From Escherichia coli (GTDB taxonomy: Bacteria; Pseudomonadota; Gammaproteobacteria; Enterobacterales; Enterobacteriaceae): a stretch of DNA of 64,000 bases. Location of the stretch: the NCBI RefSeq assembly GCF_003790525.1, contig NZ_CP033635.1; one strand, written 5' to 3'. Below, piece by piece: positions 5,016-62,584 of this stretch. Under the pieces are notes generated by a model that searched no databases, was not told the DNA's origin, and saw only the letters and a list, made by a program, of their open reading frames with translations. The translations under genes and the position numbers were made by a program. Numbering within the stretch: the stretch's first letter is position 1; every line of letters begins with the position of its first letter.

Positions 5016-5043
5016 TGGAACTGGTGTCGGAGCAGGCATCACT

Positions 5044-5079
5044 GGCGGATGCGGCGTAAAACGCCTTATCCGCCCTACG
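5044..5079. repeat. REP (repetitive extragenic palindromic) element
   Basis: ggcggatgcggcgtaaaacgccttatccgccctacg resembles the E. coli REP consensus, between convergent mntH and ypeC. Confidence 0.6.
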
Positions 5080-5082
5080 TGT

Positions 5083-5409
5083 TTAATGGCGATGTCCATG
5101 TCCGCGGCCTTTTCCGCGATGATCATCACGATCGCGCCAGCCTTCACGATAGCCACGCTCATACGCTTTACGCTTATCCCAGCCACGGTGGTAGCCATTA
5201 TCATGACGCCACCAGCGGTTCTTACGCCATTCATAATTGCGATGCCAGTAGTCACGGTCGCGCCAGTGACCACCGTCCCAGTAATTACCGTAATGATCGC
5301 GATCGCCAATTTGTAATTTGATTGATGGCAGTAGGGTGATTTCACCTGCGTTTGCCGCAAGCGGGGTAAATGCCATCAGGGCGGCCGCCAGAAACAGTGA
5401 CCTGAACAT
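5083..5409 (-). CDS. ypeC: Secreted DUF2502-family protein YpeC, 108 aa
   Basis: Signal peptide [21 protein letters not shown] followed by an Arg/Asp/His/Trp-rich repetitive region. Confidence 0.8.
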
Positions 5410-11900: not shown

Positions 11901-11924
11901 TCTCCTGATTAACCCGGAGCGGTT

Positions 11925-22892: not shown

Positions 22893-23142
22893 TAACATCA
22901 CAAATGTCGCGGCTCTCTCTGATTACCGCGAGCCAATATTTATCATATTCTTCTTTTCGTCCTCACTACTTACCATGCAGAAAGGAATTGGAAGTAGCGA
23001 TGAAATGATTTTCAGTACTTGATACAGGAATTTAAAAATATCGAGTGCAGCTACGACGATATTTTGCGGATTATTTATAGAGGCGTTATGTCTTAAATAA
23101 ACGCTAAATTAACACATATTTAATTAACTAATAGGTATTGCT

Positions 23143-24393
23143 ATGTCAACTCCACTTCAAGGAATTAAAGTTCTCGATTTCACCGGTGTGCAATCTGGCC
23201 CATCTTGTACTCAAATGCTGGCCTGGTTTGGCGCTGACGTCATTAAAATTGAACGTCCCGGCGTTGGTGACGTAACGCGTCACCAGCTGCGAGATATTCC
23301 TGATATCGATGCGCTTTACTTCACCATGCTTAACAGTAACAAACGTTCTATTGAATTAAATACCAAAACAGCGGAAGGCAAAGAGGTAATGGAAAAGCTG
23401 ATCCGCGAAGCTGATATCTTAGTCGAGAACTTTCATCCTGGGGCCATTGATCACATGGGCTTCACCTGGGAGCATATTCAAGAAATCAATCCACGTCTGA
23501 TTTTTGGTTCGATCAAAGGGTTTGATGAGTGTTCGCCTTATGTGAATGTAAAAGCCTATGAAAACGTTGCTCAGGCAGCGGGTGGCGCGGCATCCACTAC
23601 GGGTTTTTGGGACGGTCCGCCGCTGGTAAGCGCTGCAGCGTTGGGTGACAGCAACACCGGAATGCATTTACTGATCGGTTTACTTGCTGCTTTGCTGCAT
23701 CGCGAAAAAACGGGGCGTGGGCAACGAGTCACCATGTCAATGCAGGATGCCGTATTGAACCTTTGCCGCGTGAAATTACGCGACCAGCAGCGTCTCGATA
23801 AATTGGGTTATCTGGAAGAATACCCGCAGTATCCGAATGGCACATTTGGTGATGCAGTTCCCCGCGGAGGTAATGCGGGTGGTGGCGGTCAGCCTGGCTG
23901 GATCCTGAAATGTAAAGGCTGGGAAACCGATCCTAATGCCTATATTTATTTCACTATTCAGGAGCAAAACTGGGAAAACACCTGTAAAGCTATCGGCAAA
24001 CCAGAATGGATTACCGATCCGGCATACAGTACAGCCCATGCCCGACAGCCACATATTTTCGATATTTTTGCTGAAATCGAAAAATACACTGTCACTATTG
24101 ATAAACATGAAGCTGTGGCCTATTTGACTCAGTTTGATATTCCTTGTGCACCGGTTTTAAGTATGAAAGAAATTTCACTTGATCCCTCTTTGCGCCAAAG
24201 TGGCAGTGTTGTCGAAGTGGAACAACCGTTGCGTGGAAAATATCTGACAGTTGGTTGTCCAATGAAATTCTCTGCCTTTACGCCGGATATTAAAGCTGCG
24301 CCGCTATTAGGTGAACATACCGCTGCTGTATTGCAGGAGCTGGGTTATAGCGACGATGAAATTGCTGCAATGAAGCAAAACCACGCCATCTGA
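23143..24393 (+). CDS. frc: Formyl-CoA:oxalate CoA-transferase, 416 aa
   Basis: Family III CoA-transferase translation; paired with oxc downstream. Confidence 0.9.
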
Positions 24394-24446
24394 TATTAAC
24401 GGGGGCTTCTGGCTCCCAATTTATAAAAATTTCGAGGTTATTAATC

Positions 24447-26141
24447 ATGTCAGATCAACTTCAAATGACAGATGGTATGCATATCATCGTTGAAGCATTA
24501 AAACAGAATAATATTGACACTATTTATGGTGTTGTAGGTATTCCTGTGACGGATATGGCACGCCATGCCCAGGCGGAAGGCATTCGTTATATTGGTTTTC
24601 GTCATGAGCAGTCGGCAGGCTATGCCGCTGCGGCAAGCGGTTTTCTTACCCAAAAACCAGGGATCTGCCTGACAGTGTCTGCGCCAGGATTCCTCAATGG
24701 TTTGACCGCATTGGCCAACGCAACGGTAAATGGTTTTCCGATGATCATGATTAGCGGCTCCAGCGACCGCGCGATCGTCGACCTACAGCAAGGTGATTAT
24801 GAAGAGCTGGACCAAATGAATGCGGCAAAACCGTATGCCAAAGCAGCATTCCGCGTTAATCAGCCGCAGGATCTTGGCATTGCATTGGCACGCGCTATCC
24901 GGGTCTCAGTATCGGGTCGCCCTGGCGGAGTTTATCTTGATTTGCCAGCAAATGTCCTGGCCGCGACGATGGAAAAAGACGAAGCGTTAACCACGATTGT
25001 AAAAGTTGAAAATCCGTCGCCAGCATTATTGCCATGCCCGAAGTCAGTCGCTAGCGCAATTTCGCTTTTAGCAAAAGCTGAACGACCATTAGTTATCCTT
25101 GGCAAAGGCGCGGCGTATTCACAAGCTGATGAACAGCTTCGTGAATTTATTGAAAGTGCCCAGATTCCATTCCTGCCAATGTCTATGGCGAAAGGGATCC
25201 TGGAAGATACACATCCACTTTCTGCGGCAACTGCGCGTTCGTTTGCCCTGGCAAATGCTGACGTTGTCATGCTTGTTGGTGCACGACTGAATTGGTTACT
25301 GGCACACGGTAAAAAAGGATGGGCGGCAGATACACAGTTTATTCAACTGGATATTGAACCGCAGGAAATTGACAGCAACCGCCCCATTGCTGTGCCAGTC
25401 GTTGGCGATATTGCATCCAGTATGCAAGGTATGCTGGCAGAACTGAAACAAAACACATTTACGACTCCACTGGTATGGCGCGATATTTTAAATATCCACA
25501 AGCAGCAAAATGCACAAAAAATGCATGAAAAGTTAAGTACAGATACCCAACCATTAAATTACTTTAATGCATTGAGTGCCGTGCGCGATGTTTTGCGCGA
25601 GAACCAGGATATTTATTTAGTTAATGAAGGGGCAAATACCCTGGATAATGCACGAAATATTATTGATATGTATAAACCACGTCGTCGTCTGGATTGTGGC
25701 ACCTGGGGTGTCATGGGCATCGGTATGGGCTATGCCATCGGTGCTAGCGTGACCTCTGGTTCTCCGGTTGTCGCCATTGAAGGTGATAGTGCTTTTGGTT
25801 TCAGTGGGATGGAGATTGAAACGATTTGTCGATATAACCTGCCGGTGACGATCGTTATTTTTAATAATGGCGGCATCTACAGAGGAGACGGTGTTGATCT
25901 CAGTGGCGCTGGTGCACCATCACCAACAGATCTGTTGCACCATGCAAGGTATGACAAATTAATGGATGCGTTTCGTGGCGTTGGCTATAACGTCACCACG
26001 ACAGATGAACTTCGTCATGCTTTAACCACCGGTATTCAGTCGCGCAAACCGACCATTATTAATGTGGTCATCGACCCTGCAGCAGGAACTGAAAGTGGCC
26101 ATATTACCAAACTTAACCCAAAACAAGTCGCTGGTAATTAA
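24447..26141 (+). CDS. oxc: Oxalyl-CoA decarboxylase (ThDP-dependent), 564 aa
   Basis: Thiamine-diphosphate enzyme translation including the [14 protein letters not shown] cofactor-binding motif. Confidence 0.9.
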
Positions 26142-26209
26142 ATACTGACATCGTCTCCTCTTGCCAACTCATTATCGATGGTGAGGGGACCCTTATCGGA
26201 AATACTATT

Positions 26210-27154
26210 ATGCTAACATTTTTTATTGGCGATTTATTGCCTATTATCGTAATCATGCTGTTGGGTTATTTTAGCGGCAGACGAGAAACTTTTTCAGAAG
26301 ATCAAGCCCGGGCATTTAATAAACTGGTATTAAACTACGCTCTTCCTGCGGCCCTATTTGTTTCTATTACCCGGGCAAACAGGGAAATGATTTTTGCGGA
26401 CACTCGCCTGACCCTTGTATCACTTGTGGTTATTGTCGGATGTTTCTTTTTCTCCTGGTTTGGTTGCTACAAATTTTTTAAACGTACCCATGCAGAAGCA
26501 GCAGTATGTGCATTAATTGCAGGTTCACCTACCATCGGATTCCTGGGGTTTGCAGTTCTCGACCCTATTTATGGTGATTCCGTATCAACAGGTTTAGTGG
26601 TAGCAATTATTTCTATTATTGTTAACGCAATTACTATTCCTATTGGTCTGTATTTGTTGAATCCTTCCTCAGGAGCGGATGGTAAGAAGAATAGCAATCT
26701 GAGCGCATTAATTTCTGCGGCAAAGGAGCCAGTAGTATGGGCACCTGTTCTGGCAACGATCCTGGTGTTGGTTGGGGTAAAAATTCCGGCAGCATGGGAC
26801 CCAACCTTTAATCTGATTGCGAAGGCTAACTCAGGGGTAGCGGTATTCGCTGCGGGGTTGACTCTGGCTGCACATAAATTCGAGTTCAGTGCCGAAATTG
26901 CTTATAACACCTTCCTGAAGCTGATTCTGATGCCACTGGCGCTGCTTCTCGTGGGTATGGCATGTCATTTGAACAGCGAACATTTGCAGATGATGGTACT
27001 GGCAGGCGCCTTACCGCCGGCATTCTCCGGAATCATTATTGCCAGCCGGTTTAATGTCTATACCCGCACTGGTACAGCATCATTGGCTGTGAGCGTACTG
27101 GGCTTTGTCGTCACGGCTCCCTTGTGGATTTATGTCAGTCGACTGGTTTCATAA
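26210..27154 (+). CDS. yfdV: AEC-family transporter YfdV, 314 aa
   Basis: Multi-TM translation in the frc-oxc cluster. Confidence 0.82.
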
Positions 27155-27227
27155 TTAATCATGTTATTGATTTTACATAAATGCCGAAGTGTCTTTTCAC
27201 CTTCGGCTTTTTTCAAGGCATAAGCAA

Positions 27228-28373
27228 ATGACAAATAATGAAAGCAAAGGGCCGTTTGAAGGCTTATTAGTTATCGATATGACGCATGTCCTTAATGGGC
27301 CTTTCGGAACTCAACTTCTTTGTAATATGGGCGCAAGGGTAATTAAAGTTGAGCCGCCAGGTCATGGTGATGATACCCGCACATTTGGTCCCTATGTGGA
27401 TGGACAGTCACTCTATTACAGTTTTATTAATCATGGCAAAGAGAGTGTGGTTCTTGATTTAAAGAATGATCACGATAAAAGTATATTTATAAATATGCTT
27501 AAACAAGCTGATGTATTAGCTGAGAATTTTCGCCCAGGTACAATGGAAAAACTGGGGTTTTCATGGGAAAGGTTACAAGAAATCAACCCGCGCCTTATAT
27601 ATGCTTCATCGTCAGGTTTCGGACATACCGGTCCGCTAAAAGATGCTCCTGCCTACGATACCATCATTCAGGCAATGAGCGGGATAATGATGGAAACAGG
27701 ATACCCTGATGCTCCGCCAGTGCGCGTTGGTACCTCTCTTGCGGATCTATGTGGTGGTGTTTATTTATTCAGCGGAATAGTGAGTGCACTTTATGGCCGC
27801 GAAAAGAGCCAGAGAGGTGCGCATGTCGATATAGCGATGTTTGATGCCACGCTGAGTTTTCTGGAGCATGGACTGATGGCATATATCGCGACTGGGAAGT
27901 CACCACAACGCCTGGGAAATCGCCATCCCTACATGGCACCTTTTGATGTTTTTGATACTCAGGATAAGCCGATTACAATTTGTTGTGGTAATGACAAGCT
28001 TTTTTCTGCGTTATGCCAGGCACTGGAGCTTACAGAACTGGTTAATGATCCCCGATTTAGCAGCAATATTTTACGCGTACAAAACCAGGCTATTCTTAAA
28101 CAATATATTGAGCGAACGTTAAAAACGCAGGCAGCTGAAGTTTGGTTAGCCAGAATACATGAAGTTGGTGTACCCGTCGCGCCGTTATTAAGTGTGGCTG
28201 AGGCCATTAATTTGCCACAAACTCAGGCGAGAAATATGTTGATTGAAGCCGGAGGAATAATGATGCCAGGTAATCCGATAAAAATCAGCGGCTGCGCGGA
28301 CCCGCATGTTATGCCGGGAGCGGCAACGCTCGACCAGCATGGGGAACAAATTCGCCAGGAGTTCTCATCATAA
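27228..28373 (+). CDS. yfdE: Acetyl-CoA:oxalate CoA-transferase YfdE, 381 aa from Met MTNNESKG
   Basis: Paralogue of frc (family III CoA-transferase); the track ORF has a 13-codon upstream extension. Confidence 0.85.
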   Translation: MTNNESKGPFEGLLVIDMTHVLNGPFGTQLLCNMGARVIKVEPPGHGDDTRTFGPYVDGQSLYYSFINHGKESVVLDLKNDHDKSIFINMLKQADVLAENFRPGTMEKLGFSWERLQEINPRLIYASSSGFGHTGPLKDAPAYDTIIQAMSGIMMETGYPDAPPVRVGTSLADLCGGVYLFSGIVSALYGREKSQRGAHVDIAMFDATLSFLEHGLMAYIATGKSPQRLGNRHPYMAPFDVFDTQDKPITICCGNDKLFSALCQALELTELVNDPRFSSNILRVQNQAILKQYIERTLKTQAAEVWLARIHEVGVPVAPLLSVAEAINLPQTQARNMLIEAGGIMMPGNPIKISGCADPHVMPGAATLDQHGEQIRQEFSS

Positions 28374-28428
28374 ATGTAAGATGTGCTGGTAAATAGCTCC
28401 CACATTAGAACATTGTGGGAGCCGCAAT

Positions 28429-31400
28429 TTAGTCATTTTTCTGACAGAAAACAGCAATCTCCTGGTCCAGCTCTGCAATGTGTTCTTTTACAGAGTTCAG
28501 CAACTGAAGAATTTCAGGCTTACTGTCATCTGAAACAGGTGTTATTTCTAACTGATGGCTAATATTAATCAACTTTTGCAAATTCAGGATGTTAGCCGCA
28601 CCGTGGATGCGATGAATACACTGATGGAAAGTTCTGTTATCGCCAGCTTCTAGTGCATGAAACGCAGCGGGTAGATCTTTATGCGTTTCATGCTGGAAAG
28701 TCATGAGAATCTCCTGCATCAGTTGTAGATCATTCGCCGTATTATTCTTCAGGGCCTCGATATCAAGGTGGCGATACTGAGGTGCAATATGCGCAACCTG
28801 GTGTAACTGACTTAAATGTGTTTTCAGTACATCCAGAGTCAACGGTTTGAACAAACATAAGTTCATGCCGCAATTTAACCCTTTTTCACGTTCGTTAGCC
28901 TGTGCGTTGGCTGTAAGCCCCCAGATGGGTAAGGAAGAATTTTGCTCACGGAGTTTGCGAGTCAACTCAAAACCATCCATATTCGGCATATTTACGTCAG
29001 TAATAAGCAGATCATAATGTTGCATACTGATTTTGTGTAGCGCTTGCACACCATCAGTGGCTTCATCAACATCATATCCTAATAGATTTAGCTGGCGTTT
29101 GAGTAATAGCCTGTTGGTCGGATGATCATCCGCGATTAATATGCTCAACTTTTCAGGTAGTGTGATAGGTTGTTCTGCTTTTGTCTCTATAGCCGCCACT
29201 TGTTGGGTAATTTCTACCGGGATTGTGATCGTAAATATCGTTCCTATGCCTGGATGACTTTCTAATGACAAATCGCCCTGCATGTTTTTTATTAATTCTT
29301 TGCAGATCATTAAGCCTAAACCAGAACCTGTTTGCTGACGACCTGCACTTGTTTGGCTATAGCGTTTAAACAGTTGTTGTTGTTCTTCCTGCGATAATCC
29401 ACTTCCAGAATCCATAATCGTCATTTTGATAACAGCGTGGTTGTCATCAATGTGACCCAGGGAGGTCGTAATTTTTACTGCTCCCTCGGTAGTAAATTTG
29501 AGAGCATTACTCAGTAAATTAGATAAGACCTGCTTAAACGCCTGAGGGTCGATCTTAACCAGGTAGCGTTCAGGAAACGTACTGCTGCAACTTAATGCGA
29601 TGGATTTGCTTGCAGCAATCGCACCGAAAGAGTGACAAGTGTTCTGGACTAAAGTAGGGATATCGACCCATTGTGGTTGAAGTTGATAGTTACCCGATTC
29701 AATTTTGTCGACATCAAGGATTTCACCAATTAAGCCGAGGAGTGATTGTCCGGTGGCGTAGGCAAGTGAAATCGCCTCCACCCGTTGCTCCTTGCTAAGA
29801 CCAGAACCCGACAGTAGTTCCAGGAAGCCCATAATGGAGCTTATTGGTGTTCTTATTTCGTGACTCATTGTTGCCAGAAACTGGCTTTTTGCGACAGTTG
29901 CATTGATCGCTTTATTTCTCTCTACTTCGAGTGCATGAATTAAATCACGCGTCTCGGTAATATCTTGCCAACCACAAATATAAACAGCATGTTCGCTTGC
30001 TGGCAGATTACATAAGGTATGCCAGTGATTAATGCATCTTTTCTCGATGCCATTATCAATTTCAAATACCTGTGTGTATATTGTTCGGTTTTCTTTCGTT
30101 TCTGCTGTGACTTCATGCGTATTAGAAAAAACATCTTTAAAGGGGGATTCACTGTTTTCTAATGGTAACATTGCACTTTTATAGTAATCAGCAGTGAAAT
30201 AATGTTCAAATGCACTATTGTGACTAATGACATTACCTTGCCAGTTTACAACATAAGTTGGATTCGGTAAGGAGTCCGAGAGTGCTTTCCGGAATGATAT
30301 TTGGTTTTCTAAATCACCCTGAATAACTTTACGACGACGAACTGAGCGTAACAGGTAGAATCCCCATAAAAGGCTACTGCCAACTAATAAAACGGATAAT
30401 GTCGTAACAATATAAAATTGCTCGCTATAGAGGTCCCATGTATCAATGGTCACATTGGGCATTTTAATCCATTTTTCGGTCAGGCGCAGAACTTCGCTTG
30501 GGGGAATTGCATTCAGTGCTTTATTAATAATATCCTTAAGTTCCGGTTCTCCGCGAGGAAAAGCGAACGAAAGTGATGCATTCTGAACGCCGGGAATAAG
30601 AAAATGATAAAGTTCATTAGGATAGTAATGGTCGATCATGTAACGCGAATTTAACTGTGTCGCGACCAGAGCATCAAGTTCACCTTCCTTGACCTTGTGA
30701 AATGCAGCGCTGGCGTTATCGACTTTTATCCACTCTACCTCCGGATACATCTCTTTTAATTGCGAATGAAGCTCATAATAATATGGAATGGCAACTTTCA
30801 TTCCTTTTTTTAATGTTTGTTCACTGTCAGGCGCTTTTTGCATGACAAAAACGTAAGGCGTTGTTATGAAGGCTTCAGCAAATGAAACATTATTTTCTCG
30901 ATCTTCACTATAAATAGCGGCGGGCAATATATCCCATCCACCGGGGTTAAGCTGTGTCCCCGCATGAATATTGTGTGAAACGGTGATCGGAGAAAAATTT
31001 AAACCTGTTTGCAAGGTAATAATATTAAGAATATCACCCATCACGCCCCGAACTGAGCCAGTTTCATCTGTCATAGAATAGGGTGGCGAGTAAGGATTTT
31101 CCAGCACCTTTAAATCGGGATGCTGCTTAATCCACTGTTTTTCATGTTCAGTGAGTTCTAATGGTTTGTTCAGAAAGGCCAGGTTTCCTGTATCAAGCCA
31201 ATTTTGTGATACTTCATAGCGAACTTCATTTGTTAAAGCATCAACAAATCGATTGAGTACTTCATTAAGAACGATTGAATCTTTTCTGGTTAATAAAAAG
31301 TTATATTGACGCGGTGAGTTATAATACTTCACTACATTTAAGGAGTGAGTAAAATAACGGGAAATCATACTGCTGGTAATGATGTTACTACCAATAAAGT

Positions 31401-32022
31401 AATCATTCTGTCCGGCTGAGACGGATGCTAATGCCTGATATAAATTTGTAAAAGAGATAATTGTTGCTTTTGGAAATGATTGATGAATTACCTCGTCTGG
31501 GGGATAATTTGCTACTCGAGCAATATTTACTGGTTTTGATGAGGTAAGCGGTCGCATTGAATCGTGAAGGGTAGTGACCAGCGCCGGAAAGGTAATTATC
31601 AGAGGATTAGTTGCAGCAATGTCATCATTAAGAGGCGGCGAAGCAACTAAATGTGATAACACTATATCAACTTCACCGTCTTCCAGCGCGTCCATTGCTT
31701 TTTGATGATCTGCGTATTCCCGGAGTGTTAATTTGATATTTAACGCTCTTTTTAAAAGATTTAAATAATCAGCATTAATACCACGAATCCGTTGCTGCGA
31801 ATCGGTATGCAACAACGTAGCTGTTTGGGACTTGTGTACTGCAATCACAAGATTTTTTTTGCTCGCTAGCCAACGTAATTCCTTGTTGCTCAGACGTAGT
31901 GGATCAAGTGTGACACGGTTGTTACTACTGATGCCACGATATTCGATGTAATCTCCGTCTGCGAAACTTATGGTCGACCAAAGACCACAACAGAGAAGAA
32001 AAATATAGGGTAAAAACTTCAT
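28429..32022 (-). CDS. evgS: Hybrid sensor histidine kinase EvgS, 1197 aa
   Basis: Signal peptide, tandem periplasmic solute-binding-like domains, TM, HisKA/ATPase, receiver and HPt domains. Confidence 0.92.
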   Translation of the reverse strand: MKFLPYIFLLCCGLWSTISFADGDYIEYRGISSNNRVTLDPLRLSNKELRWLASKKNLVIAVHKSQTATLLHTDSQQRIRGINADYLNLLKRALNIKLTLREYADHQKAMDALEDGEVDIVLSHLVASPPLNDDIAATNPLIITFPALVTTLHDSMRPLTSSKPVNIARVANYPPDEVIHQSFPKATIISFTNLYQALASVSAGQNDYFIGSNIITSSMISRYFTHSLNVVKYYNSPRQYNFLLTRKDSIVLNEVLNRFVDALTNEVRYEVSQNWLDTGNLAFLNKPLELTEHEKQWIKQHPDLKVLENPYSPPYSMTDETGSVRGVMGDILNIITLQTGLNFSPITVSHNIHAGTQLNPGGWDILPAAIYSEDRENNVSFAEAFITTPYVFVMQKAPDSEQTLKKGMKVAIPYYYELHSQLKEMYPEVEWIKVDNASAAFHKVKEGELDALVATQLNSRYMIDHYYPNELYHFLIPGVQNASLSFAFPRGEPELKDIINKALNAIPPSEVLRLTEKWIKMPNVTIDTWDLYSEQFYIVTTLSVLLVGSSLLWGFYLLRSVRRRKVIQGDLENQISFRKALSDSLPNPTYVVNWQGNVISHNSAFEHYFTADYYKSAMLPLENSESPFKDVFSNTHEVTAETKENRTIYTQVFEIDNGIEKRCINHWHTLCNLPASEHAVYICGWQDITETRDLIHALEVERNKAINATVAKSQFLATMSHEIRTPISSIMGFLELLSGSGLSKEQRVEAISLAYATGQSLLGLIGEILDVDKIESGNYQLQPQWVDIPTLVQNTCHSFGAIAASKSIALSCSSTFPERYLVKIDPQAFKQVLSNLLSNALKFTTEGAVKITTSLGHIDDNHAVIKMTIMDSGSGLSQEEQQQLFKRYSQTSAGRQQTGSGLGLMICKELIKNMQGDLSLESHPGIGTIFTITIPVEITQQVAAIETKAEQPITLPEKLSILIADDHPTNRLLLKRQLNLLGYDVDEATDGVQALHKISMQHYDLLITDVNMPNMDGFELTRKLREQNSSLPIWGLTANAQANEREKGLNCGMNLCLFKPLTLDVLKTHLSQLHQVAHIAPQYRHLDIEALKNNTANDLQLMQEILMTFQHETHKDLPAAFHALEAGDNRTFHQCIHRIHGAANILNLQKLINISHQLEITPVSDDSKPEILQLLNSVKEHIAELDQEIAVFCQKND

Positions 32023-32026
32023 GTGG

Positions 32027-32641
32027 TTAGCCGATTTTGTTACGTTGTGCGAATGTGTAAAGATCCATCAGTGATTTGCATTCTAATTTTTCCATCAAGC
32101 GACTTTTATACGTGCTGACAGTTTTGTTGCTGATGAACATTTTTTCAGCAATGTCATTATTATCCTTGCCATCAAGAATATACCGCATGACACTAATTTC
32201 TTGTTTCGATAAGGAGTCGAGTTTTTGCTGGTCGGACGTTAAACTTCCAACAAACCGGTTGAGAGAGAAGGGGAAATAGCAGTAGCCATTTTTTGCAGCT
32301 TCAATAGCCGCAATGATATTGTTCATGCCTTCTTTTTTACTCACGAAACCATTAGCGCCAGCATCAGCACAATGTTTCCCGTAAAAATGGTCATTTTTAG
32401 CGGAGACAATAATAATAATTCCGCTATATTGGCGCTTTCTCAGCGTTTCTAACACCTGGATACCGTTAACTCCGGGGATATCGACATCAATGATGACGAT
32501 ATCAGGCTTAAGTGTTTCCACCCGCTGAACGGCACTTCCGCCTTCAGTCAACTCTGCTAAGATTTCAATATCGTTTTTGATCAATAAATTACGAATTGCT
32601 GCGATAGCAAGAGGATGGTCATCAATAATTATTGCGTTCAT
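32027..32641 (-). CDS. evgA: Response regulator EvgA (receiver + LuxR-type HTH), 204 aa
   Basis: Receiver domain plus C-terminal LuxR/FixJ HTH; immediately upstream of evgS on the same strand. Confidence 0.92.
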   Translation of the reverse strand: MNAIIIDDHPLAIAAIRNLLIKNDIEILAELTEGGSAVQRVETLKPDIVIIDVDIPGVNGIQVLETLRKRQYSGIIIIVSAKNDHFYGKHCADAGANGFVSKKEGMNNIIAAIEAAKNGYCYFPFSLNRFVGSLTSDQQKLDSLSKQEISVMRYILDGKDNNDIAEKMFISNKTVSTYKSRLMEKLECKSLMDLYTFAQRNKIG

Positions 32642-32865
32642 AGATTATTCCCTTTGCAATGAAGCATCTCCCTTCTCCCTGTAGTAATACAGACATAAGG
32701 CATCATCTCATTTTCTCAATAAAAATAAGAAAATTTGAGCTTCCTTTAAGATAATTCGACAAGTATACCATATAAATAGTCGGCATATATGAAATGTCAA
32801 CAATAAAATCAGGGATTGTACCGATGATTTATAGTTTCACATTAGCACTATAAGTCTTCTCACTA

Positions 32866-32883
32866 ATCCTACAGGCGTAAGAA
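32866..32883. promoter_or_regulatory. EvgA box in the evgA-emrK divergent intergenic region
   Basis: ATCCTACA-GG-CGTAAGAA matches the EvgA consensus at 16 of 18 positions. Confidence 0.6.
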
Positions 32884-33056
32884 TTGTATTGCAAAAGCCA
32901 CGGTTTAGTCCTCTGTTGTTTTTTTTGCACCTCATTTAAATTAGGCCTCCAACGTTCCTGGGATAATGTGCAACACATGCACTGTGTTTGATATGAAGAA
33001 TGAATACTCTTTTCATTCAATTCATAAATTTCATCTATGCGAAATGAGAGATAAAA

Positions 33057-34220
33057 GTGGAACAGATTAATTCAAATAAAAAACATTCTGACAGAAAAAA
33101 ATATTTTGCTTTGTTAGCGGTAGTTTTATTTATTGCGTTTTCAGGTGCCTATGCCTATTGGTCAATGGAATTAGAAGACATGATTAGTACAGATGACGCC
33201 TATGTCACGGGAAATGCAGATCCAATTTCTGCACAAGTTTCAGGCAGCGTCACTGTCGTTAATCATAAAGATACGAACTACGTTCGACAGGGTGACATTT
33301 TAGTCTCACTGGATAAGACTGATGCCACTATCGCACTCAATAAAGCTAAAAATAATCTGGCCAATATTGTTCGGCAAACGAATAAACTGTACTTACAGGA
33401 TAAACAATACAGTGCCGAAGTCGCTTCAGCTCGTATTCAGTATCAACAATCTTTAGAAGATTATAACCGTCGTGTACCTTTAGCGAAGCAGGGGGTTATT
33501 TCAAAAGAAACGCTGGAGCATACCAAAGATACGTTAATAAGTAGCAAAGCGGCATTGAATGCTGCTATTCAGGCTTATAAAGCGAATAAAGCTTTAGTAA
33601 TGAACACACCATTAAACCGTCAGCCACAAGTCGTTGAAGCGGCGGATGCAACCAAAGAAGCCTGGTTGGCGCTTAAACGTACGGATATTAAGAGTCCGGT
33701 TACCGGCTATATTGCCCAGCGAAGTGTTCAGGTCGGCGAAACAGTGAGTCCCGGACAATCGTTAATGGCTGTCGTACCGGCACGTCAAATGTGGGTTAAT
33801 GCCAACTTTAAAGAAACACAACTCACGGATGTGCGGATTGGTCAATCGGTCAATATTATTAGCGATCTTTATGGTGAAAATGTTGTGTTTCATGGTCGGG
33901 TGACAGGGATCAATATGGGAACCGGCAATGCGTTCTCCTTATTACCTGCACAAAATGCGACAGGGAATTGGATCAAAATCGTTCAGCGTGTACCGGTTGA
34001 GGTTTCTCTTGATCCAAAAGAACTCATGGAACATCCCTTGCGCATTGGTTTATCGATGACTGCAACTATTGATACCAGGAACGAAGACATTGCCGATATG
34101 CCCGATCTGGCTTCAACCGTGACGTCCATGCCTGCTTATACCAGTAAGGCTTTAATTATCGATACCAGTCCGATAGAAAAAGAAATTAGCAACATTATTT
34201 CGCATAATGGACAACTTTAA
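33057..34220 (+). CDS. emrK: Multidrug efflux membrane-fusion protein EmrK (EmrA paralogue), 387 aa
   Basis: HlyD-family periplasmic adaptor translation with single N-terminal TM. Confidence 0.88.
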   Translation: MEQINSNKKHSDRKKYFALLAVVLFIAFSGAYAYWSMELEDMISTDDAYVTGNADPISAQVSGSVTVVNHKDTNYVRQGDILVSLDKTDATIALNKAKNNLANIVRQTNKLYLQDKQYSAEVASARIQYQQSLEDYNRRVPLAKQGVISKETLEHTKDTLISSKAALNAAIQAYKANKALVMNTPLNRQPQVVEAADATKEAWLALKRTDIKSPVTGYIAQRSVQVGETVSPGQSLMAVVPARQMWVNANFKETQLTDVRIGQSVNIISDLYGENVVFHGRVTGINMGTGNAFSLLPAQNATGNWIKIVQRVPVEVSLDPKELMEHPLRIGLSMTATIDTRNEDIADMPDLASTVTSMPAYTSKALIIDTSPIEKEISNIISHNGQL

Positions 34221-54965: not shown

Positions 54966-55199
54966 ATGAAAAAACAAAAGAAAATGCGATACGTATTACG
55001 CTGTATTCGTATCCCGCACGAAATCGACCATAAAATAAATCAGATATGTAAGGACAGAGAGATGAACTACTCCCAGTGCGTCAGAATGTTTATCTGTCAG
55101 GGAATTAAGGCCGGGGAAACGCAGGAAGAAGACCGCAACGGGCGCAATGTAGCGGGAGATGTGTGGGCCTGGGCAAATGACCAGAACTACACGACGTAA
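54966..55199 (+). CDS. Small putative ribbon-helix-helix-type DNA-binding protein, 77 aa
   Basis: Start at MKKQKKMRYVLRCIRIP with an upstream AGGGAGG ribosome-binding site; beta-strand then helices typical of RHH regulators; surrounded by GCGTAATAC repeats. Confidence 0.4.
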   Translation: MKKQKKMRYVLRCIRIPHEIDHKINQICKDREMNYSQCVRMFICQGIKAGETQEEDRNGRNVAGDVWAWANDQNYTT

Positions 55200-55249
55200 T
55201 ACAGAAATAACGTAGCCGGTTACACTCGCTGGCTGCGTTATACAAATCA

Positions 55250-55432
55250 CTATGAAGTTTTCAACTTCCTGCGCTTAGTGATGCGTACAAACGACTCAAG
55301 CGTACAAAAACAAGCCCCACACTCAATATTACTGCACTGGTAATACGTTTTGTAGATGTTTTGTTCGTGCTCTTCCAACGAACGACTACGGGTTCGGGCT
55401 GAAGCGCCACAGGCCGGGCAAGGGAAAGACAT
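55250..55432 (-). CDS. Ogr/Delta-family zinc-finger late-gene activator, 60 aa
   Basis: CPACGASARTRSRS...YQCSNIECGACFCTLES matches the P2 Ogr / P4 Delta C-X2-C-X22-C-X4-C signature. Confidence 0.7.
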   Translation of the reverse strand: MSFPCPACGASARTRSRSLEEHEQNIYKTYYQCSNIECGACFCTLESFVRITKRRKLKTS

Positions 55433-56046
55433 ATCACGCTCCTCTTACTGGTGTGAAATTTGACCTATTATATCTCCTGCCGCCCCCTCTGGCTGTATCA
55501 AATAAACCCGCAGCAGTCGCCGCGTATTACGGACGGACGCACCGTTCCCATGCTCACTCGTCACATTCCCCGTATCAGTTCTCTCTTACCGTAAGAACGG
55601 CTCTGGCTGGCGATAAAACTAACCCGGTCGGGCATTCCCGCAGTCTTTAGAGAAAATGTAATTTACCCCCTGAAACGTGGGCTGTTCCCCCGTCACCTGC
55701 GCGCGAAAAACTCACCGTTTTTTGTGCACGCACGAAATCGCCCTCCGGGTGCGCCAGTACTGGGCCGGATGGGCAAAAAGTTACTCTAAAAAATTGTGCA
55801 AATTTGTGCACTTTTGTGCAGATGAACAATAGCGTGAAAAAGAGTGCTTTTGAGAGATTTTTTATGGCAACTGCGCCGCGTGTATTACGTTTTTTACCAT
55901 CCCCGCCGCGCATGTACATACTTCATTTTTCTGCCAGACAACAGGGCAACTCCCCGTGACTGACAGCCCCAAAAAATCAATGATTGATGTTGCATTTTTG
56001 TTAAAGGTTAGACCAGTTGTTTTAGGGCTCTGCCTCATAATCCGGT

Positions 56047-56360
56047 GGGGGGTGCGCAAAGCGGTTACAACGGTTACAACACTCAAAAACACCACTTAAC
56101 AGCATGATTTTAATGGATATTGTTTGTAACCGCTTTGCGGTTACACTGCGGTTACAACGGTTACAGGTTTCAAAAAGCACTTTATTATCAATCAATTAAA
56201 AACTTAACCTGTAACCGCCTGTAACCTAACAAAACGGTTACATGTAACCGCGTTGTAACCGCTTTTATAACTCATCGGACCAGTTATAATATATTGATAT
56301 ATAATACAAAAATAAGTAATTTTAAATTTGTAACCGTTGTAACCGCTTTGCGCACCCCCC
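56047..56360. repeat. Heptamer-repeat cluster (GGTTACA / TGTAACC) bounded by 33-bp perfect inverted repeats, candidate replication origin
   Basis: 56047..56079 ggggggtgcgcaaagcggttacaacggttacaa is the exact reverse complement of 56328..56360; about 14 heptamer copies in both orientations lie between. Confidence 0.6.
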
Positions 56361-56611
56361 CCCAAACTTTAGCGCGACCCTTTAAAATGTTAATTAAACT
56401 CACTTACTCTGTATCTCTCTCGTTAACTCTCTGTTATTGAAATGTATCTCTCCACTGTTTCACTCTTTCTGATAATCAGGGGAAGCAAAAAATTGATGGC
56501 GGCACTACTGCAATATGGCCACCATTGCATTGCTGTTACCGTTGGTTCTGGCCAACAAAAAAGGTCAGCGGGAAACTGACCTCTTTTGCTGTGAATGCGG
56601 CGTTCTGCGGG

Positions 56612-57616
56612 TTACTCTGCTGGCTCTTTTTCTTCGGTGATCACTATGTTGGCTACCGGGTTAAATCTCATGGCATCTGCCAGATAATCCGGTGCAAAAT
56701 GTGCGTATGCCATAGTCTGCTGAATTGTCGCATGCCCAAGGATTTTTTGTAGCGCAAGAATGTTGCCACCGTTCATCACAAAGTGACTGGCGAATGTATG
56801 CCGCAATACATGCGCAGCCTGCCCCCTCGGTAAATCGGGTTTTATTTTTTTTAATGCCCGGCAAAACTCTCTGTACTTCACATCAAACAGTCGCCCGGTT
56901 TCTTTTGTTTTTACGGCATCGCATATTTCCTGCGACACAGGCACCGTTCTTTTTCTACCGTTTTTGGTTTCCAGAAACGTTATTCTGTTATGAACTATTT
57001 GCTCTCCATGCAATCTGCTGGCCTCACTCCAGCGGGCTCCGGTACAAAGACACAAGAGCGCAACCCTTCGTTGATCTCCATTCAGCCCGTCAAGCAACAA
57101 TGTGACCTCGTTTTTTGATAAAAAGGCCATTTCCCGCTGCTTTACATAAAGAACAGGAATACCACGAACCGGATGCTCTGCATCCCACAAACCGATCTTT
57201 TTCAGGGCTGTAAACATCCCCGATAATCTGTTCATGTATCTGTTTGCTGAGGACGGCTTTAATCCTTCCGCAATTTTCTGCGATCGCCATGCAATGATTT
57301 TTAATTTGTTGAGTTCTGCCGCAAACATGTCAGCTCCAAGCTCATTAATAATTTTGCCAAGTTGCTGTTTATCCGTGTTTGCCTTTCGCCTGTGCTGACC
57401 GTGATAGACCCACCACAATTCCAGTAAATCGCTAAGCGTTCTCCGGTCGCGATAGCCCTGTATAAACTCGCGCTTTTCGGCGTTCGCTATGATGTACCGT
57501 TCAGTTGCTGTAGCTATCGATTTTTTGTCAAATATTCTTCTGATGCGCTTCCCTTTACGTCCGCATGGCCTGATATCGAGCAGCCACCGCCCATCATGCA
57601 TCTTTCTGATCGGCAT
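56612..57616 (-). CDS. Tyrosine recombinase / phage-type integrase, 334 aa from Met MPIRK
   Basis: Box I TGARWSEASRL and box II HVLRHTFASH...LGH...Y motifs; strong AGGAGG ribosome-binding site 8 bp upstream; start 2 bp after the primase stop. Confidence 0.75.
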   Translation of the reverse strand: MPIRKMHDGRWLLDIRPCGRKGKRIRRIFDKKSIATATERYIIANAEKREFIQGYRDRRTLSDLLELWWVYHGQHRRKANTDKQQLGKIINELGADMFAAELNKLKIIAWRSQKIAEGLKPSSANRYMNRLSGMFTALKKIGLWDAEHPVRGIPVLYVKQREMAFLSKNEVTLLLDGLNGDQRRVALLCLCTGARWSEASRLHGEQIVHNRITFLETKNGRKRTVPVSQEICDAVKTKETGRLFDVKYREFCRALKKIKPDLPRGQAAHVLRHTFASHFVMNGGNILALQKILGHATIQQTMAYAHFAPDYLADAMRFNPVANIVITEEKEPAE

Positions 57617-57618
57617 GT

Positions 57619-60312
57619 TTAACTCCCCTCCTTGTAACTGAATATCCGGCATTTCAGTACTTCCGGCTCTCTGGCCTCGGCGACCCCTCTTCCGGCGTTT
57701 GCCTGTCTGGAGACCTCACTACGAATGGTTTTGCGGCCTGTCAAAGGTCGGGAACGTCCGGCTGCGAGCAACTCAATCATTTCGCGGTCAGTTCGGATCT
57801 CCACGCGGTGAATAGCGGCAGCCTGTGCCAGTTGCGGAATACTGATAGCAATCCCCTCGCGGCATCCCTTGCCGTAGTGGTTTACACCGTATTTTGTTAT
57901 GCCGTCCAGATAGTCGAACGCCTCCCAGAACGCTATTACTTCCGGCAAGTCATCCGTTACCGCTTTAACTTGTTCCGCTGCCATTCGTTCCAGTTCCTGG
58001 CATGTGGCATTAAGCCATTCATCCGGGATATCAATAACGCATTTCAGCGCCCTGACCAGCGCAATAAGTTGCGCGTGATTTTTGGCAATACGGGGATGGA
58101 GAATATTTTCGCAACCGCAAAGGCGGGTCGTTTCAGGCTCTGAGAGCGCCAGAAACATTTCCATAATTGCCCGTTCACGGCTGACTGCCCGATGAATAAA
58201 CCCTGACACCTTCTCAACGGGGTAGAGTTCCAGTCGTCTCGCCGCCAGCCGGGTATCAGACGAGTGGCGCTTTTTATCGGTATATATGCGAATCAGTCGC
58301 TCAATAATTGCAAGTGAGGCGTTTACCCTGGCATTCTGTGCAATCACGATAGCGCCCTTAAAATCCGGGTCATAGGTGTTGTTATTGTTGGTCTTAACGC
58401 CACGAACGCCGATACCGCCGCCGTTATAGAGGCTTTTCAGGTTATCGAAGTCAAACGCACCTCTTTTTTGCGCATTGCCTCCCCTGTCTGCTTCAATCAG
58501 AACAACAGGTAATCCGGCGACCTGTCCAAAGGTGCGCTTCCAGCCCGCCTCTGATCCTTTGGTTGGATCAACGCCTTCATAGTTGTCACGACCGCACAAC
58601 CGCCAGCAAAAATCAATCAATGTTGATTTACCCGTTCCGGGCTCCCCGGTGACTTCAAGGAAGGGGAAGGATTCTTCTTTATCCCGGATTTGTTCGCTGA
58701 ACAGGGAGCCCAACCAGAAAGCCAGGGTAATAATTCCTTTTTCACCAAAAGCCAGCCAGAGATCTTCCACCCAGGACTCTGTAAACTCATCCGGTTTTTT
58801 GTAGTTAATCTGTAATGTGGGTTTTTCGCTTAATGGTTTTGCGTTTATGCCATCAATTTCAAAATAATCTTCGTCATTGATTTCATAAGTTTTTCCCTTG
58901 TAAACAGCAATATCATTAAACAGCCATGCCCCAATCGCCTTGTTGTATCCGATAAAATCCTGACCAATAACCTCTTTTATTGCGGGAAGGTCATTTTTTA
59001 TTAATGCGTCAAGGTGCGCAGTTGTTCCGGTATAAATGCCGCCTTTTGCCACATGCAACAGGCGTTTTTTAAATTCAGATGCGGATGTCAATTGTCCTGA
59101 TGTAAAGGTGTTTTTCACCGTAGCACCATCCGGGAACGTAACACGGAAGTAATACCATGCTTCATCCGTGTCATTATTTCTAATGTAATAAAGCGGCGCT
59201 GGGTTACAGTTTGCGATTTCTTTTACTGCGCCAGATTCCTTAAGTGCAATTTTGCGCGCTTCATCCTCATCAACACTTCTCTCATTCTTGGCACGCTCTA
59301 CAGCTTTCATATAGCGCTCAATGTCCAGTTTGAACCAGAAAACACGGTTATCAAAAGTAAAATGAAATTCCTTCCGCTCACGAAAGGAAAATATTATTAG
59401 CGCCTTATCTCTCGGAGATTTCGCCAGCAATAAATCACCGTAATGACGGTATCTTTTCACATCATGGCCACGCAGCTTTCCGGCGATGTGTAAATCATTC
59501 CAGTCGCGTTTATTGTTGTTTTTACCTGGCAACGCCGCTGCCGTTCTCCAGCCGTCTTCGGCGCTGCGTTCTGCATGTTTTTTCGCGTAACGCTCACCCG
59601 CACGCCCGTTATCCAGCGCCCACACAATAACCGGACGGGGATTATCCCCGCACAGCTTCGCCAGCTCTTCCAGCGCCTTATCAGGGTAGTTCACGGCAGA
59701 CATGACAGAAACGGCCGCAATGCCATTCTGGTTAAGGCTGATGGCATCAAAGATGCCCTCACAAATCCAGATTTCTTTGGCCTTGCTTAAATCTGCTCCC
59801 GGATAAGCCCACCACAACCCCTTGTAGCTGCCGGAAAAATTCGCCTTGCGCGCGAAGCGTCCCGGTCGGTCTATGATGCGCTCCCACCACACGCCGTCAG
59901 CCAGCGTAAAACGCACAGTAGCGGCCTGTTCGCCGTTTTCCTTGTCCTGGTATCGCTCCTGAGTAAATGCGCCCTTCAGTGGCCCCACAGCAATATTGCG
60001 CGCCTCCTGAAGATAAGCTGCCACCGCTGCATATGGCTCGTCTTTCGTGCTGATATAACGATCTGACCATGATGAAAACACATCCGGGTAAAGTTCTTTG
60101 GTCAGCAGGTCTGTACCGCATTTATTTTCGCGCCCACAGTGTACGATGTACGGCCTTTCAAGGCTGGTAAACAACTCTTTCTTTCCACATTGCGGACAAA
60201 CACCATACCGGAGGTAGTTATTTTCTTCTTTGAAGTTGTAATCACGGATAAGACGGTTAATAATCTCTTTTCTGATGTCAGATTTCATATATAAAACTCC
60301 ACCCCACTGCAC
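57619..60312 (-). CDS. Primase-helicase replication protein (P4 alpha-like), 897 aa
   Basis: N-terminal zinc-binding CPQCG...HCG..C, Toprim-like CEGIFDAISL region and Walker A TGEPGTGKST. Confidence 0.75.
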   Translation of the reverse strand: MQWGGVLYMKSDIRKEIINRLIRDYNFKEENNYLRYGVCPQCGKKELFTSLERPYIVHCGRENKCGTDLLTKELYPDVFSSWSDRYISTKDEPYAAVAAYLQEARNIAVGPLKGAFTQERYQDKENGEQAATVRFTLADGVWWERIIDRPGRFARKANFSGSYKGLWWAYPGADLSKAKEIWICEGIFDAISLNQNGIAAVSVMSAVNYPDKALEELAKLCGDNPRPVIVWALDNGRAGERYAKKHAERSAEDGWRTAAALPGKNNNKRDWNDLHIAGKLRGHDVKRYRHYGDLLLAKSPRDKALIIFSFRERKEFHFTFDNRVFWFKLDIERYMKAVERAKNERSVDEDEARKIALKESGAVKEIANCNPAPLYYIRNNDTDEAWYYFRVTFPDGATVKNTFTSGQLTSASEFKKRLLHVAKGGIYTGTTAHLDALIKNDLPAIKEVIGQDFIGYNKAIGAWLFNDIAVYKGKTYEINDEDYFEIDGINAKPLSEKPTLQINYKKPDEFTESWVEDLWLAFGEKGIITLAFWLGSLFSEQIRDKEESFPFLEVTGEPGTGKSTLIDFCWRLCGRDNYEGVDPTKGSEAGWKRTFGQVAGLPVVLIEADRGGNAQKRGAFDFDNLKSLYNGGGIGVRGVKTNNNNTYDPDFKGAIVIAQNARVNASLAIIERLIRIYTDKKRHSSDTRLAARRLELYPVEKVSGFIHRAVSRERAIMEMFLALSEPETTRLCGCENILHPRIAKNHAQLIALVRALKCVIDIPDEWLNATCQELERMAAEQVKAVTDDLPEVIAFWEAFDYLDGITKYGVNHYGKGCREGIAISIPQLAQAAAIHRVEIRTDREMIELLAAGRSRPLTGRKTIRSEVSRQANAGRGVAEAREPEVLKCRIFSYKEGS

Positions 60313-61281: not shown

Positions 61282-61719
61282 TTAAACATGGCACGCCTCC
61301 CGGACACGGATACGGGCAACAAAGACCAGACGGGATGCCGGAAGCAGGGCGCGCGCTTCGCGCTCACTGGCAGCGGTAACGGTATGAAGGCGGATATTTT
61401 TACCGTGGCACTGCATAAAGCGCCAGATAAAATCAGGGCGTGTTGATATAGCCATTTTGGCGGCTCCTTGATTAAGTTTACGGAGTCTCGCCAGCACGCT
61501 GTCAAACATGGTGGCGGGACGTAACAGGGTTGACAGACTGGCAATCAAGGAACCAGCGAGCGCAAAGGCTCCCCCATTACGCCCCGCCATAATACGGGGT
61601 AGGGTGGAATTACGGGCACAAAAAAACCGCATTACGGAAATATAGCGGCTACCCGCTTGATTGTTCAGGCTGTCAAACCCGGCACCCGCTTTATGAGGTG
61701 CGGGCAAACGATACGCCAT
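61282..61719 (-). CDS. Hypothetical protein, ~145 aa from Met MAYRLPAP
   Basis: ORF in the same-strand array between alpA and the primase gene; start codon uncertain. Confidence 0.3.
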   Translation of the reverse strand: MAYRLPAPHKAGAGFDSLNNQAGSRYISVMRFFCARNSTLPRIMAGRNGGAFALAGSLIASLSTLLRPATMFDSVLARLRKLNQGAAKMAISTRPDFIWRFMQCHGKNIRLHTVTAASEREARALLPASRLVFVARIRVREACHV

Positions 61720-62362: not shown

Positions 62363-62584
62363 TTAAGCCTGAAAACGTTGTTGTTTTCTTTCTTCTATCC
62401 AGTCGATAATTTCCTCTTCAACCCATGCAACCGCGCGAGGGCCTATTTTTATTGGTTTGGGGAATATATCAGATTTTATATCTTCGTAAATTCGAGCTCT
62501 TGATCTCCCTGTGATTTCAATGACTCTGGGGAGTCTTATTAATTTTTGAATCCGCCTTTCGCTGGTCTGTGAGTATGCTGACAT
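62363..62584 (-). CDS. alpA: AlpA-family prophage transcriptional regulator, 73 aa
   Basis: IRLPRVIEITGRSRARIYEDIKSDIFPKPIKIGPRAVAWVEEEIIDWI matches the AlpA/MerR-like excisionase-regulator signature. Confidence 0.8.
   Translation of the reverse strand: MSAYSQTSERRIQKLIRLPRVIEITGRSRARIYEDIKSDIFPKPIKIGPRAVAWVEEEIIDWIEERKQQRFQA

Follow-up and report, generated by a model that had tools for sequence, protein, structure and literature searches.

The 64,000-nucleotide window analyzed here, one strand of Escherichia coli contig NZ_CP033635.1 (assembly GCF_003790525.1), carries at positions 55250..55432, on the minus strand, an open reading frame (ORF) for a single-domain, Ogr/Delta-family zinc-finger late activator of 60 aa. 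The ORF, which translates as MSFPCPACGASARTRSRSLEEHEQNIYKTYYQCSNIECGACFCTLESFVRITKRRKLKTS, has an AGGAG 7 nt 5′ of its ATG. Pfam family PF04606 (Ogr_Delta) matches residues 5-51 at model positions 2-46 of 47 (i-E 3.5e-11), PHROG 603 ‘transcriptional regulator’ matches with 1.3e-10, and the same ORF is named ‘ogr/Delta-like zinc finger family protein’ by PGAP in complete E. coli genomes. Against the NCBIfam OgrK equivalog NF007241 the protein scores 31.7 bits where the cutoff is 116, and it is thus no OgrK ortholog. The ORF is real and its product is a member of the Ogr/Delta family, far beyond what chance would give, which bears out a preliminary description of this DNA that had reported a 60-aa Ogr/Delta-type ORF at exactly these coordinates.

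In an alignment that includes P2 Ogr, P88 Ogr, and the two halves of P4 Delta, the island protein shows ARTRSR and YYQCSN at the family's ARTSR-like and YxQCxN positions, both of which the preliminary description had recognized. Its cysteines lie at C5, C8, C33, and C38, giving C-X2-C-X24-C-X4-C; the four cysteines described earlier are therefore present, but the X22 loop assigned to them was a miscount. X22 is the spacing of P2 Ogr and of both halves of P4 Delta, whereas X24 is common to the island protein, P88 Ogr, and the Ogr proteins of two relatives of the island, L008 and L010, so that the alignment upholds the family match and not the P2 Ogr/P4 Delta spacing. P88 Ogr, the closest phage homolog, is 47% identical to the island protein and P2 Ogr 32%. 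The island protein stops just beyond the zinc-finger domain and lacks the tail that the phage proteins, 72-86 aa long, possess. Judged by its sequence, the spacing is that of a genuine Ogr subfamily of P2-like phages, the P88-like Peduoviridae, in which the four-cysteine motif has a loop longer by two residues.

The ORF lies within an integrative element whose boundaries can be placed on both sides. In the best chromosomal match of the window, E. coli GF60 (99.3% identity), the integrase is complete, has 420 aa including a DNA-binding domain of the arm type, and has tRNA-Arg (argW) and yfdC next to it. In the window itself, the P4-type integrase (63195..64000, minus strand; NCBIfam integrase domain, 5e-39) is cut by the window end, with argW just beyond. 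The left boundary is a degenerate distal att repeat, TGGTGTCCCTGCAGAAATC, at 51949..51967, which resembles the 3′ end of argW tRNA-Arg, TGGTGTCCCCTGCAGGAATC, with one base deleted and one mismatch. This repeat was located by reading the sequence directly; neither exact 13-mers taken from the tRNA region of GF60 nor a search tolerating as many as 3 mismatches had detected it. The boundaries give an element of ∼12.7 kb at argW, distinct from the UpaE/invertase island on its left.

From the tRNA inward, and mostly on the minus strand, the gene order is integrase, AlpA, isrK-like RNA, C4 RNA, Icd-like domain, small ORFs, primase-helicase, P2-type integrase, terminator, origin, cos, ogr, a divergent ORF (plus strand), a 236-aa gene, a capsid gene, a terminator, and a MazEF-like pair (plus strand). 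The AlpA-family regulator/excisionase (62363..62584, minus strand) matches PHROG 2790 and PHROG 66 ‘excisionase and transcriptional regulator’ and is placed in the AlpA family by PGAP. An immunity cassette follows (61303..61701, minus strand), composed of an isrK-like RNA at 61620-61701, a C4/CI-type antisense RNA at 61507-61594, and an Icd-like domain at 61303-61431, with Rfam scores of 74.6 bits for C4 and 50.6 bits for isrK and an NCBIfam phage_ICD_like match of 3.1e-14. C4 RNA is also found in P4, P88, and the relatives L006 and L008, and an isrK-like match precedes it in P4, P88, and L006.

Replication functions occupy the middle of the element. A Toprim plus P-loop primase-helicase (57619..60312, minus strand), a functional analog of P4 alpha, matches PHROG 1139 DNA primase with 2.4e-297, and in Pfam Toprim_2 (1.8e-12), Toprim_3 and, weakly, DUF5906. 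The origin of replication (56044..56363) consists of GGTTACA iterons around an AT-rich core, with 13 of the 18 window copies of the heptamer falling in 56063-56344, and is bounded by a 36-nt inverted repeat (56044-56079 and 56328-56363) whose arms are 97% complementary. In L010 a different iteron, CTGGGAACA, stands at the same position. Between the two, the element encodes another, internal tyrosine recombinase (56612..57652, minus strand). It is of the P2 Int type, with full-length identities of 48% to P2 Int and 43% to P88 Int, and a terminator-like hairpin lies beside it at 56562-56582; this gene is kept in the ETEC6333 and L014 copies of the element and is absent from L008 and L010. At the far end of the element, a MazE-like antitoxin (52184-52432) and a MazF/PemK toxin (52432-52776) are encoded on the plus strand (NCBIfam MazE, 3.5e-4; MazF, 1.1e-26). 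In ETEC6333, where the same element sits between hpt and gcd and carries a different integrase, the MazEF pair travels with it.

The ogr gene and the 236-aa gene flank a small divergent ORF, and a 165-bp divergent promoter region contains the putative Ogr/Delta binding dyad TTCTCGTAATACGCTCACAA (TTCT-N12-ACAA, 54876..54895). The exact TGT-N12-ACA dyad, which the preliminary description had named for P2-like late promoters, has a single match in the element, one that falls within the internal integrase and is uninformative. Informative instead was the extended pattern TT[CG]T-N12-ACAA, with one island site, located in the divergent region that separates the small ORF from the 236-aa gene. P4 contains the extended pattern exactly twice, 34 bp upstream of sid and again ∼400 bp further in the same direction, at the Ogr/Delta-activated promoters Psid and PLL. 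In P88 it occurs in both divergent late intergenic regions, terminase/protease and sheath/gpD. The dyad center of the island lies 84.5 bp from the ATG of the 236-aa gene and 80.5 bp from that of the divergent ORF, a spacing comparable to P2 pP/pO, where a single annotated activator site lies 55-56 bp from both transcription starts.

Although the island site reads TCT-N12-ACA where family sites have TGT-N12-ACA near -55, and binding to it is putative, perfect TTGT-N12-ACAA dyads are present in the equivalent intergenic region of L008, L009, and L010, and L010 has another dyad ∼100 bp upstream of the ogr start. By chance ∼0.01 dyads per region would be expected, for a pattern that was picked after inspection and later checked on independent relatives. 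The recurrence of the dyad in diverged relatives is the strongest evidence for an Ogr-dependent operon, and suggests that such an operon exists here. No sigma-70 consensus promoter was found in the divergent region, a result that fits an activator-dependent promoter.

The same region is rich in a second repeat. Five GTAATAC heptads, putative operator repeats, are clustered at 54813..54999, and four more extend up to 55888, so that 9 of the 18 window copies fall in 54813-55888 as against ∼6 expected for the whole window; one of them lies inside the dyad spacer. GTAATAC is not enriched in P88, and it clusters around ogr and around the sid-like promoter in L008 and L010. The divergent ORF (54966..55199, plus strand; 77 aa, with a GGGAGG ribosome-binding site) is conserved, with homologs sharing the motif R-I/L-P-H/Y-E-x-D at the same position in L008 and L009. 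Its only Pfam match is a weak one to CopG_antitoxin (E 0.11). The product is possibly a ribbon-helix-helix regulator, and the conserved ORF is the obvious candidate for a GTAATAC-binding protein.

Downstream of the dyad, on the minus strand, lies a two-gene operon. The 236-aa protein (54091..54801) appears to be a Sid homolog and is a putative capsid size-determination scaffold. It matches no Pfam or PHROG family, and BLASTP against Sid, Psu, P2 gpO, and the P88 protease/scaffold returned nothing significant; only a profile-profile or fold comparison brings out its relationship to Sid, and a single-sequence AF2 model was poor (pLDDT 54). A word-indexed homolog search recovered only proteins of at least 88% identity, and an exhaustive search recovered relatives of ∼240 aa and 24-41% identity in E. 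coli, Salmonella, Klebsiella, Citrobacter, Edwardsiella, and Enterobacter, all of them annotated as hypothetical. The second gene (52820..54091; 423 aa from the PGAP start, with the ORF extending to 54232) begins with a 1-nt overlap of the stop codon of the 236-aa gene and encodes a diverged P2-family major capsid protein, matching PHROG 70 major head protein with 2.1e-77 and TIGR01551 with 4.1e-39, the latter under the curated cutoff. The protein is 34% identical to P2 gpN over nearly its full length and 35% identical to the P88 capsid protein, while those two are 41% identical to each other; at 34-35% identity to the P2 and P88 capsid proteins, it therefore represents an old diverged lineage and no recent fragment. 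It has an N-terminal extension of ∼84 aa, in which no similarity to the P88 scaffold was found. Directly after the capsid stop codon, a terminator-like hairpin, GAGGGCTTCTCAGCCCTC, followed by a T-rich tail ends the late operon (52780..52797, minus strand). The capsid gene occupies the place that delta and psu have in P4.

A capsid-protein homolog that serves size redirection has a precedent in Ccm of SaPIbov5. The idea we prefer for the island is that a matched Sid/capsid pair may bypass helper capsids that are resistant to Sid; if true, satellite-sized heads would be possible even on helpers with Sid-resistant capsid proteins. That capsid genes of Gram-negative phage-inducible chromosomal islands (PICIs) were reported to be dispensable (PMC10111431) calls for caution about this role. 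The translational coupling of the capsid gene to a size-determination homolog makes the co-assembly hypothesis testable, and bears on why so many Gram-negative satellites carry a copy of a helper capsid gene.

Between the origin and ogr lies a cos block of the P88 type (55655..55821, minus strand) with the putative cohesive-end core GGTGACGGGGGAACAGCCC at 55679-55697. From 55661 to 55820 the block is 81.5% identical over 162 bp to noncoding P88 positions 10903-11062, downstream of the portal gene, and its matches in the phage collection are confined to P88-like Peduoviridae. The layout parallels that of P2/P4 cos, with TGCA..AAAA, then a hairpin, then a G-rich core, but the core differs from the GGCGAGGCGGGGAAAGCAC of P2/P4, and no match to P2/P4 cos was found in the island. 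The putative 19-nt core is identical in P88, the window, and the Salmonella relative L008, whose proteins are only 33-52% identical to those of the island. Such conservation is the pattern expected for a site selected by a helper terminase, the cos of P88 itself being a predicted site. The termini of the linear P884B11 record were considered as mapped cos ends and rejected; they fall inside the homologous block, ∼95 bp off the putative core.

P88 is 35.8 kb long, so that the element has 0.35 of its length; for comparison, P4 has 11.6 kb and P2 33.6 kb. P88-like cos, portal, and terminase genes are found in 1121 of 5426 complete E. coli genomes (∼21%). A further P88-type cos copy is present in 38 of the 55 genomes with the island cos, as against the ∼21% background, which gives an odds ratio of 8.5, or of 6.2 when second island copies are discounted; both ratios ignore kinship, and the genomes are not independent, as many carriers are related porcine enterotoxigenic E. 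coli (ETEC) strains. In two carriers that were checked, the extra cos copy was confirmed to lie inside a P88-like prophage. FDAARGOS_1299 and the O141:H4 strain P13-6 are examples of natural carriers with such a prophage. Neither the cos core nor the Ogr subtype is that of P2, and for this reason the predicted helper is P88-like (Xuanwuvirus-type) and not P2. The P2-like helper proposed in the preliminary description thus holds at the level of the P2 family, while P2 itself gives way to a P88-like phage, to which cos, Ogr subtype, and prophage enrichment all point.

The module is found in 56 of the 5426 complete E. coli genomes, at several chromosomal loci. The order ogr, divergent ORF, sid-like gene, capsid gene is kept in all four of the other contexts examined, among which the replication and integration modules differ. 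Relatives of the module from Salmonella and from metagenomes have proteins of 28-52% identity and retain the compact gene order intact. Two metagenomic contigs of 12.75 and 13.1 kb hold whole elements; neither circular nor cos-defined ends were found on them, and their ends, att-repeat fragments in one and host hpt in the other, do not prove an excised or packaged form in either case.

Taken as a whole, the island is probably a phage satellite that exploits a P88-like, and hence P2-family, helper through the life cycle proposed below. The preliminary description had already pointed to a phage satellite, a reading that gains support from the cos block, the late-promoter dyad, the Sid homolog, the RNA immunity, and the iteron origin, and also from att boundaries that enclose about one third of the helper length, from its occurrence at other chromosomal sites, and from the enrichment of P88-like prophages in its carriers. 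The observed family assignments, RNA motifs, repeats, cos homology, dyads, att boundaries, distribution, and co-occurrence are the material for this model, in which induction, activation, capsid size redirection, packaging, and transfer are modeled by analogy with P4. The C4 antisense RNA, of the P4/P1 type, would keep the element quiescent. Upon induction of, or infection by, a P88-like helper, the element would be derepressed and excised by Int and AlpA, and would replicate from the iteron origin with its own primase-helicase. Ogr-type activators, those of the island, the helper, or both, would then bind the TTCT-N12-ACAA dyad and fire the divergent late promoter, which would drive expression of the Sid homolog and the satellite-encoded P2-family major capsid protein. 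With these two proteins a small head would be assembled, or an existing one reshaped, to hold roughly a third of the helper genome length. Cutting and packaging of the satellite at the P88-type cos would fall to the terminase of the helper, which would also provide portal, protease/scaffold, tail, and lysis functions. P4 Delta activates helper late promoters, and the satellite Ogr probably also turns on those of its helper.

Three other explanations have to be set against this model. Were the island a canonical P4-like satellite mobilized by P2 itself, its Ogr would be an ordinary Delta, and the P4-type integrase, AlpA, the P4-like arrangement of the C4/CI RNA, the Delta homolog, and the Sid homolog would all be expected, as would the Phage_ASH (Epsilon) domain of the relative L010. 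Yet the core GGTGACGGGGGAACAGCCC is unlike the GGCGAGGCGGGGAAAGCAC of P2 and P4, the island contains no P2/P4 cos match, its Ogr is of the X24 P88 subtype, and it has an extra capsid gene. The marker set by which SatelliteFinder recognizes P4-like satellites comprises the integrase, AlpA (PF05930), Delta (PF04606), Sid, Psu (PF07455), Epsilon/Ash (PF10554), and Alpha (PF03288) (PMC8628076). The integrase, AlpA (by PHROG and PGAP name), and Delta are present in the island, which fails the markers for Psu, Epsilon, and alpha (Pfam), its cos also being of a non-P2/P4 type. For Psu, the Sid-like protein was the one tested; neither Pfam nor PHROG has a family that matches it, and a comparison to P4 Psu gave nothing. 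For Epsilon, the one ORF compared, of 99 aa and upstream of the primase, had neither a Pfam hit nor similarity to P4 Epsilon, and the other small island ORFs had no PHROG hit, whereas L010 does have Phage_ASH. Pfam did not find PF03288 in the island primase, which is barely similar to P4 alpha, the similarity being limited to the Walker and Toprim motifs. Because it is without Psu and a detectable Epsilon, has a non-P4 primase, and encodes its own major capsid protein, the island is not canonical P4-like, and mobilization by P2 on the pattern of P4 appears quite unlikely.

That the locus is a decayed P2-like prophage remnant, with ogr, capsid gene, and cos as leftovers that have no current function, is very improbable. 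While P2-like phages do possess ogr, a cos-like block, and integrase and capsid genes of the P2 type, the order ori, cos, ogr, divergent ORF, sid-like gene, capsid gene, toxin-antitoxin pair recurs intact at different sites, and again in Salmonella and metagenomic relatives at 28-52% protein identity. The capsid protein, moreover, is only 34-35% identical to helper capsids, replication and immunity are served by satellite-type modules, there are no other structural genes, and the noncoding cos core is conserved. The island might instead act mainly in anti-phage interference, its Sid-like protein and variant capsid protein poisoning P2-like head assembly, with spread by packaging rare or nonexistent. 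Through its dyad the late operon could answer to the Ogr of an incoming phage, there is toxin-antitoxin cargo in the element, and satellites commonly cut helper yield, P4-like elements being known carriers of defense genes (PMC9122126). Against this, the cos core is identical across diverged relatives, the length is about one third of that of the helper, and the element's own origin and primase and its multiple integration sites speak for packaging and transfer; PADLOC, run on nine island proteins (a set outside which the Sid-like and capsid proteins fell), gave no defense model. We regard a primarily interfering island as unlikely. Interference and mobilization are not mutually exclusive.

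If the island is a satellite of P88-like helpers, it may further represent a distinct Enterobacteriaceae-wide lineage, with members in E. coli, Salmonella, Klebsiella, Citrobacter, Edwardsiella, and Enterobacter, that is midway between P4 and the capsid-forming PICIs (cf-PICIs), has a matched Sid-capsid pair under an Ogr-dependent promoter, and uses a small regulator acting on GTAATAC heptads to gate the switch. We put this larger proposal forward tentatively, as a possibility that could well turn out otherwise. A literature search, incomplete in its coverage and weak as evidence, returned no description of satellites with a P2-family capsid gene. The element has probably been missed by present satellite censuses, because, with cos counted, it fails four P4 markers outright and its Sid is visible by profile or fold only. 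It would move toxin-antitoxin cargo between E. coli lineages, porcine ETEC included, and the helper group that it is predicted to target is a different and very common one, P88-like prophages being found in ∼21% of complete E. coli genomes.

Among phage activators, the island protein shares with P2 Ogr, 186 B, and P88 Ogr (all PF04606) the four-cysteine zinc finger, the A-R-T-S-R-like and Y-x-Q-C-x-N residues, and predicted dyads upstream of late operons. It differs from them in being encoded by a satellite and in its length, 60 aa as compared to 72-86 aa. P4 Delta, in turn, is a 166-aa tandem protein with X22 spacing, whereas the island activator is a 60-aa single domain with X24 spacing.

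To our knowledge, P4 has so far been the single model of satellite exploitation of P2-like phages. Functionally, the island is probably a P4-type satellite with a variant set of markers. Like P4, whose helpers are P2 and 186, it spans ∼12 kb, is integrated at a tRNA gene, and encodes AlpA as well as an integrase of the P4 type. In both, an isrK-like element stands before the C4/CI immunity RNA, the primase-helicase is paired with an iteron origin, the cos is of the helper type, the activator belongs to the Ogr family, a protein with a Sid fold (a probable one in the island) lies behind a promoter of the TGT-N12-ACA type, and the genome has about one third of the helper length. The logic of P4 is thereby kept in its RNA immunity, Ogr-type activator, Sid fold, and helper-type cos. 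Unlike in P4, the cos is P88-type, the primase is unrelated at the Pfam level, and the activator gene lies outside the sid operon; additions to the P4 plan are a capsid gene of the P2 family, the conserved small divergent ORF together with the GTAATAC heptads, and another integrase, which is P2-type.

The layout also invites comparison with Gram-negative PICIs such as EcCICFT073, in which int, alpA, pri, and ori are followed by a late zone, often with a helper capsid homolog, and in which helper-like extra integrases are occasional (PMC10111431). The island has the same int, alpA, pri, ori arrangement and a late-zone capsid gene. PICIs, however, use lambdoid/HK97-type helpers, have no Ogr, Sid, or C4 RNA, and frequently redirect packaging through TerS or Rpp, whereas the capsid gene of the island is P2-family and translationally coupled to a Sid homolog, its cos and Ogr are of the Peduoviridae type, and no terminase-like or Rpp-like gene was found in it. 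With cf-PICIs, which encode their own capsid protein (PMC10085698), the island shares this trait, but the cf-PICI gene set extends to portal, protease, head-tail connectors, and terminase subunits, and tails are all that these elements steal; because its 12.7 kb include no portal, protease, connector, or terminase genes, the island is not a cf-PICI. If the proposed lineage is real, it would stand between P4, which steals the whole capsid, and the cf-PICIs, which build the whole capsid themselves.

The satellite carries a second integrase, of the P2 Int type (window 56612-57652, minus strand), which lies immediately after the primase gene and shares 48% identity with P2 Int and 43% with the integrase of P88, the predicted helper phage. 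This gene is kept in E. coli copies of the satellite at two chromosomal sites and is missing from its Salmonella and metagenomic relatives. Candidate roles for the internal P2-type integrase are alternative integration or, in another reading, that of a captured helper gene.

Diverged relatives carry P4-like or packaging-related extras, both of them absent from the window element: L010 (2736-3317) encodes a protein with a Phage_ASH (Epsilon-like) domain, and L009 (249-554) one with a Terminase_5 domain. These additions suggest that members of the family vary modularly in how they derepress or redirect their helpers. P88 itself has its own isrK-like and C4 antisense RNA cassette (5028-5225 of the phage locus, L004), located just upstream of the annotated "derepression protein", and thus helper and satellite share RNA immunity of the same kind, with differing loop sequences. 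Cross-talk between the two immunity systems is conceivable.

A 90-aa "hypothetical protein", called by PGAP in related genomes, corresponds to window 55647-55919 on the minus strand. Since no family matches this ORF and it overlies the conserved cos block, it is unlikely to be a real gene. In the 99.3% identical copy of E. coli GF60, an IS21-family (ISSso4-like) insertion (L001 12548-14855, equivalent to window ~55440-55650) separates ogr from the cos block, and this copy of the satellite may be disabled by it.

Beyond the satellite's att remnant, the argW island has a separate module, which encodes two FimB/FimE-like tyrosine DNA invertases (window 40109-40678, minus strand, and 41427-42056, plus strand) and a LuxR-type regulator (42374-42994), immediately upstream of a 2637-aa autotransporter (43019-50932) that is named phase-variable adhesin UpaE in the GF60 annotation. 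An invertible switch is presumably located between the two invertase genes. Further left, window 23000-39714 is chromosomal backbone that we take, from ORF sizes and order alone, to resemble evgAS, oxc/frc and dsdCXA as in the argW region of E. coli K-12.

A cargo slot separates the capsid gene from the att site; in the window it is occupied by a MazEF-like pair (52184-52776, plus strand). A MazEF-like pair likewise fills this slot in ETEC6333, the E. coli copy at the hpt/gcd site; L010 holds HicAB there (11738-12330) and the Salmonella relative L008 holds a Gp49/HTH pair, with its MazE/PemK located elsewhere in the element. The capsid-att cargo slot of this family is similar to a variable hotspot that has been described in P4-like satellites.
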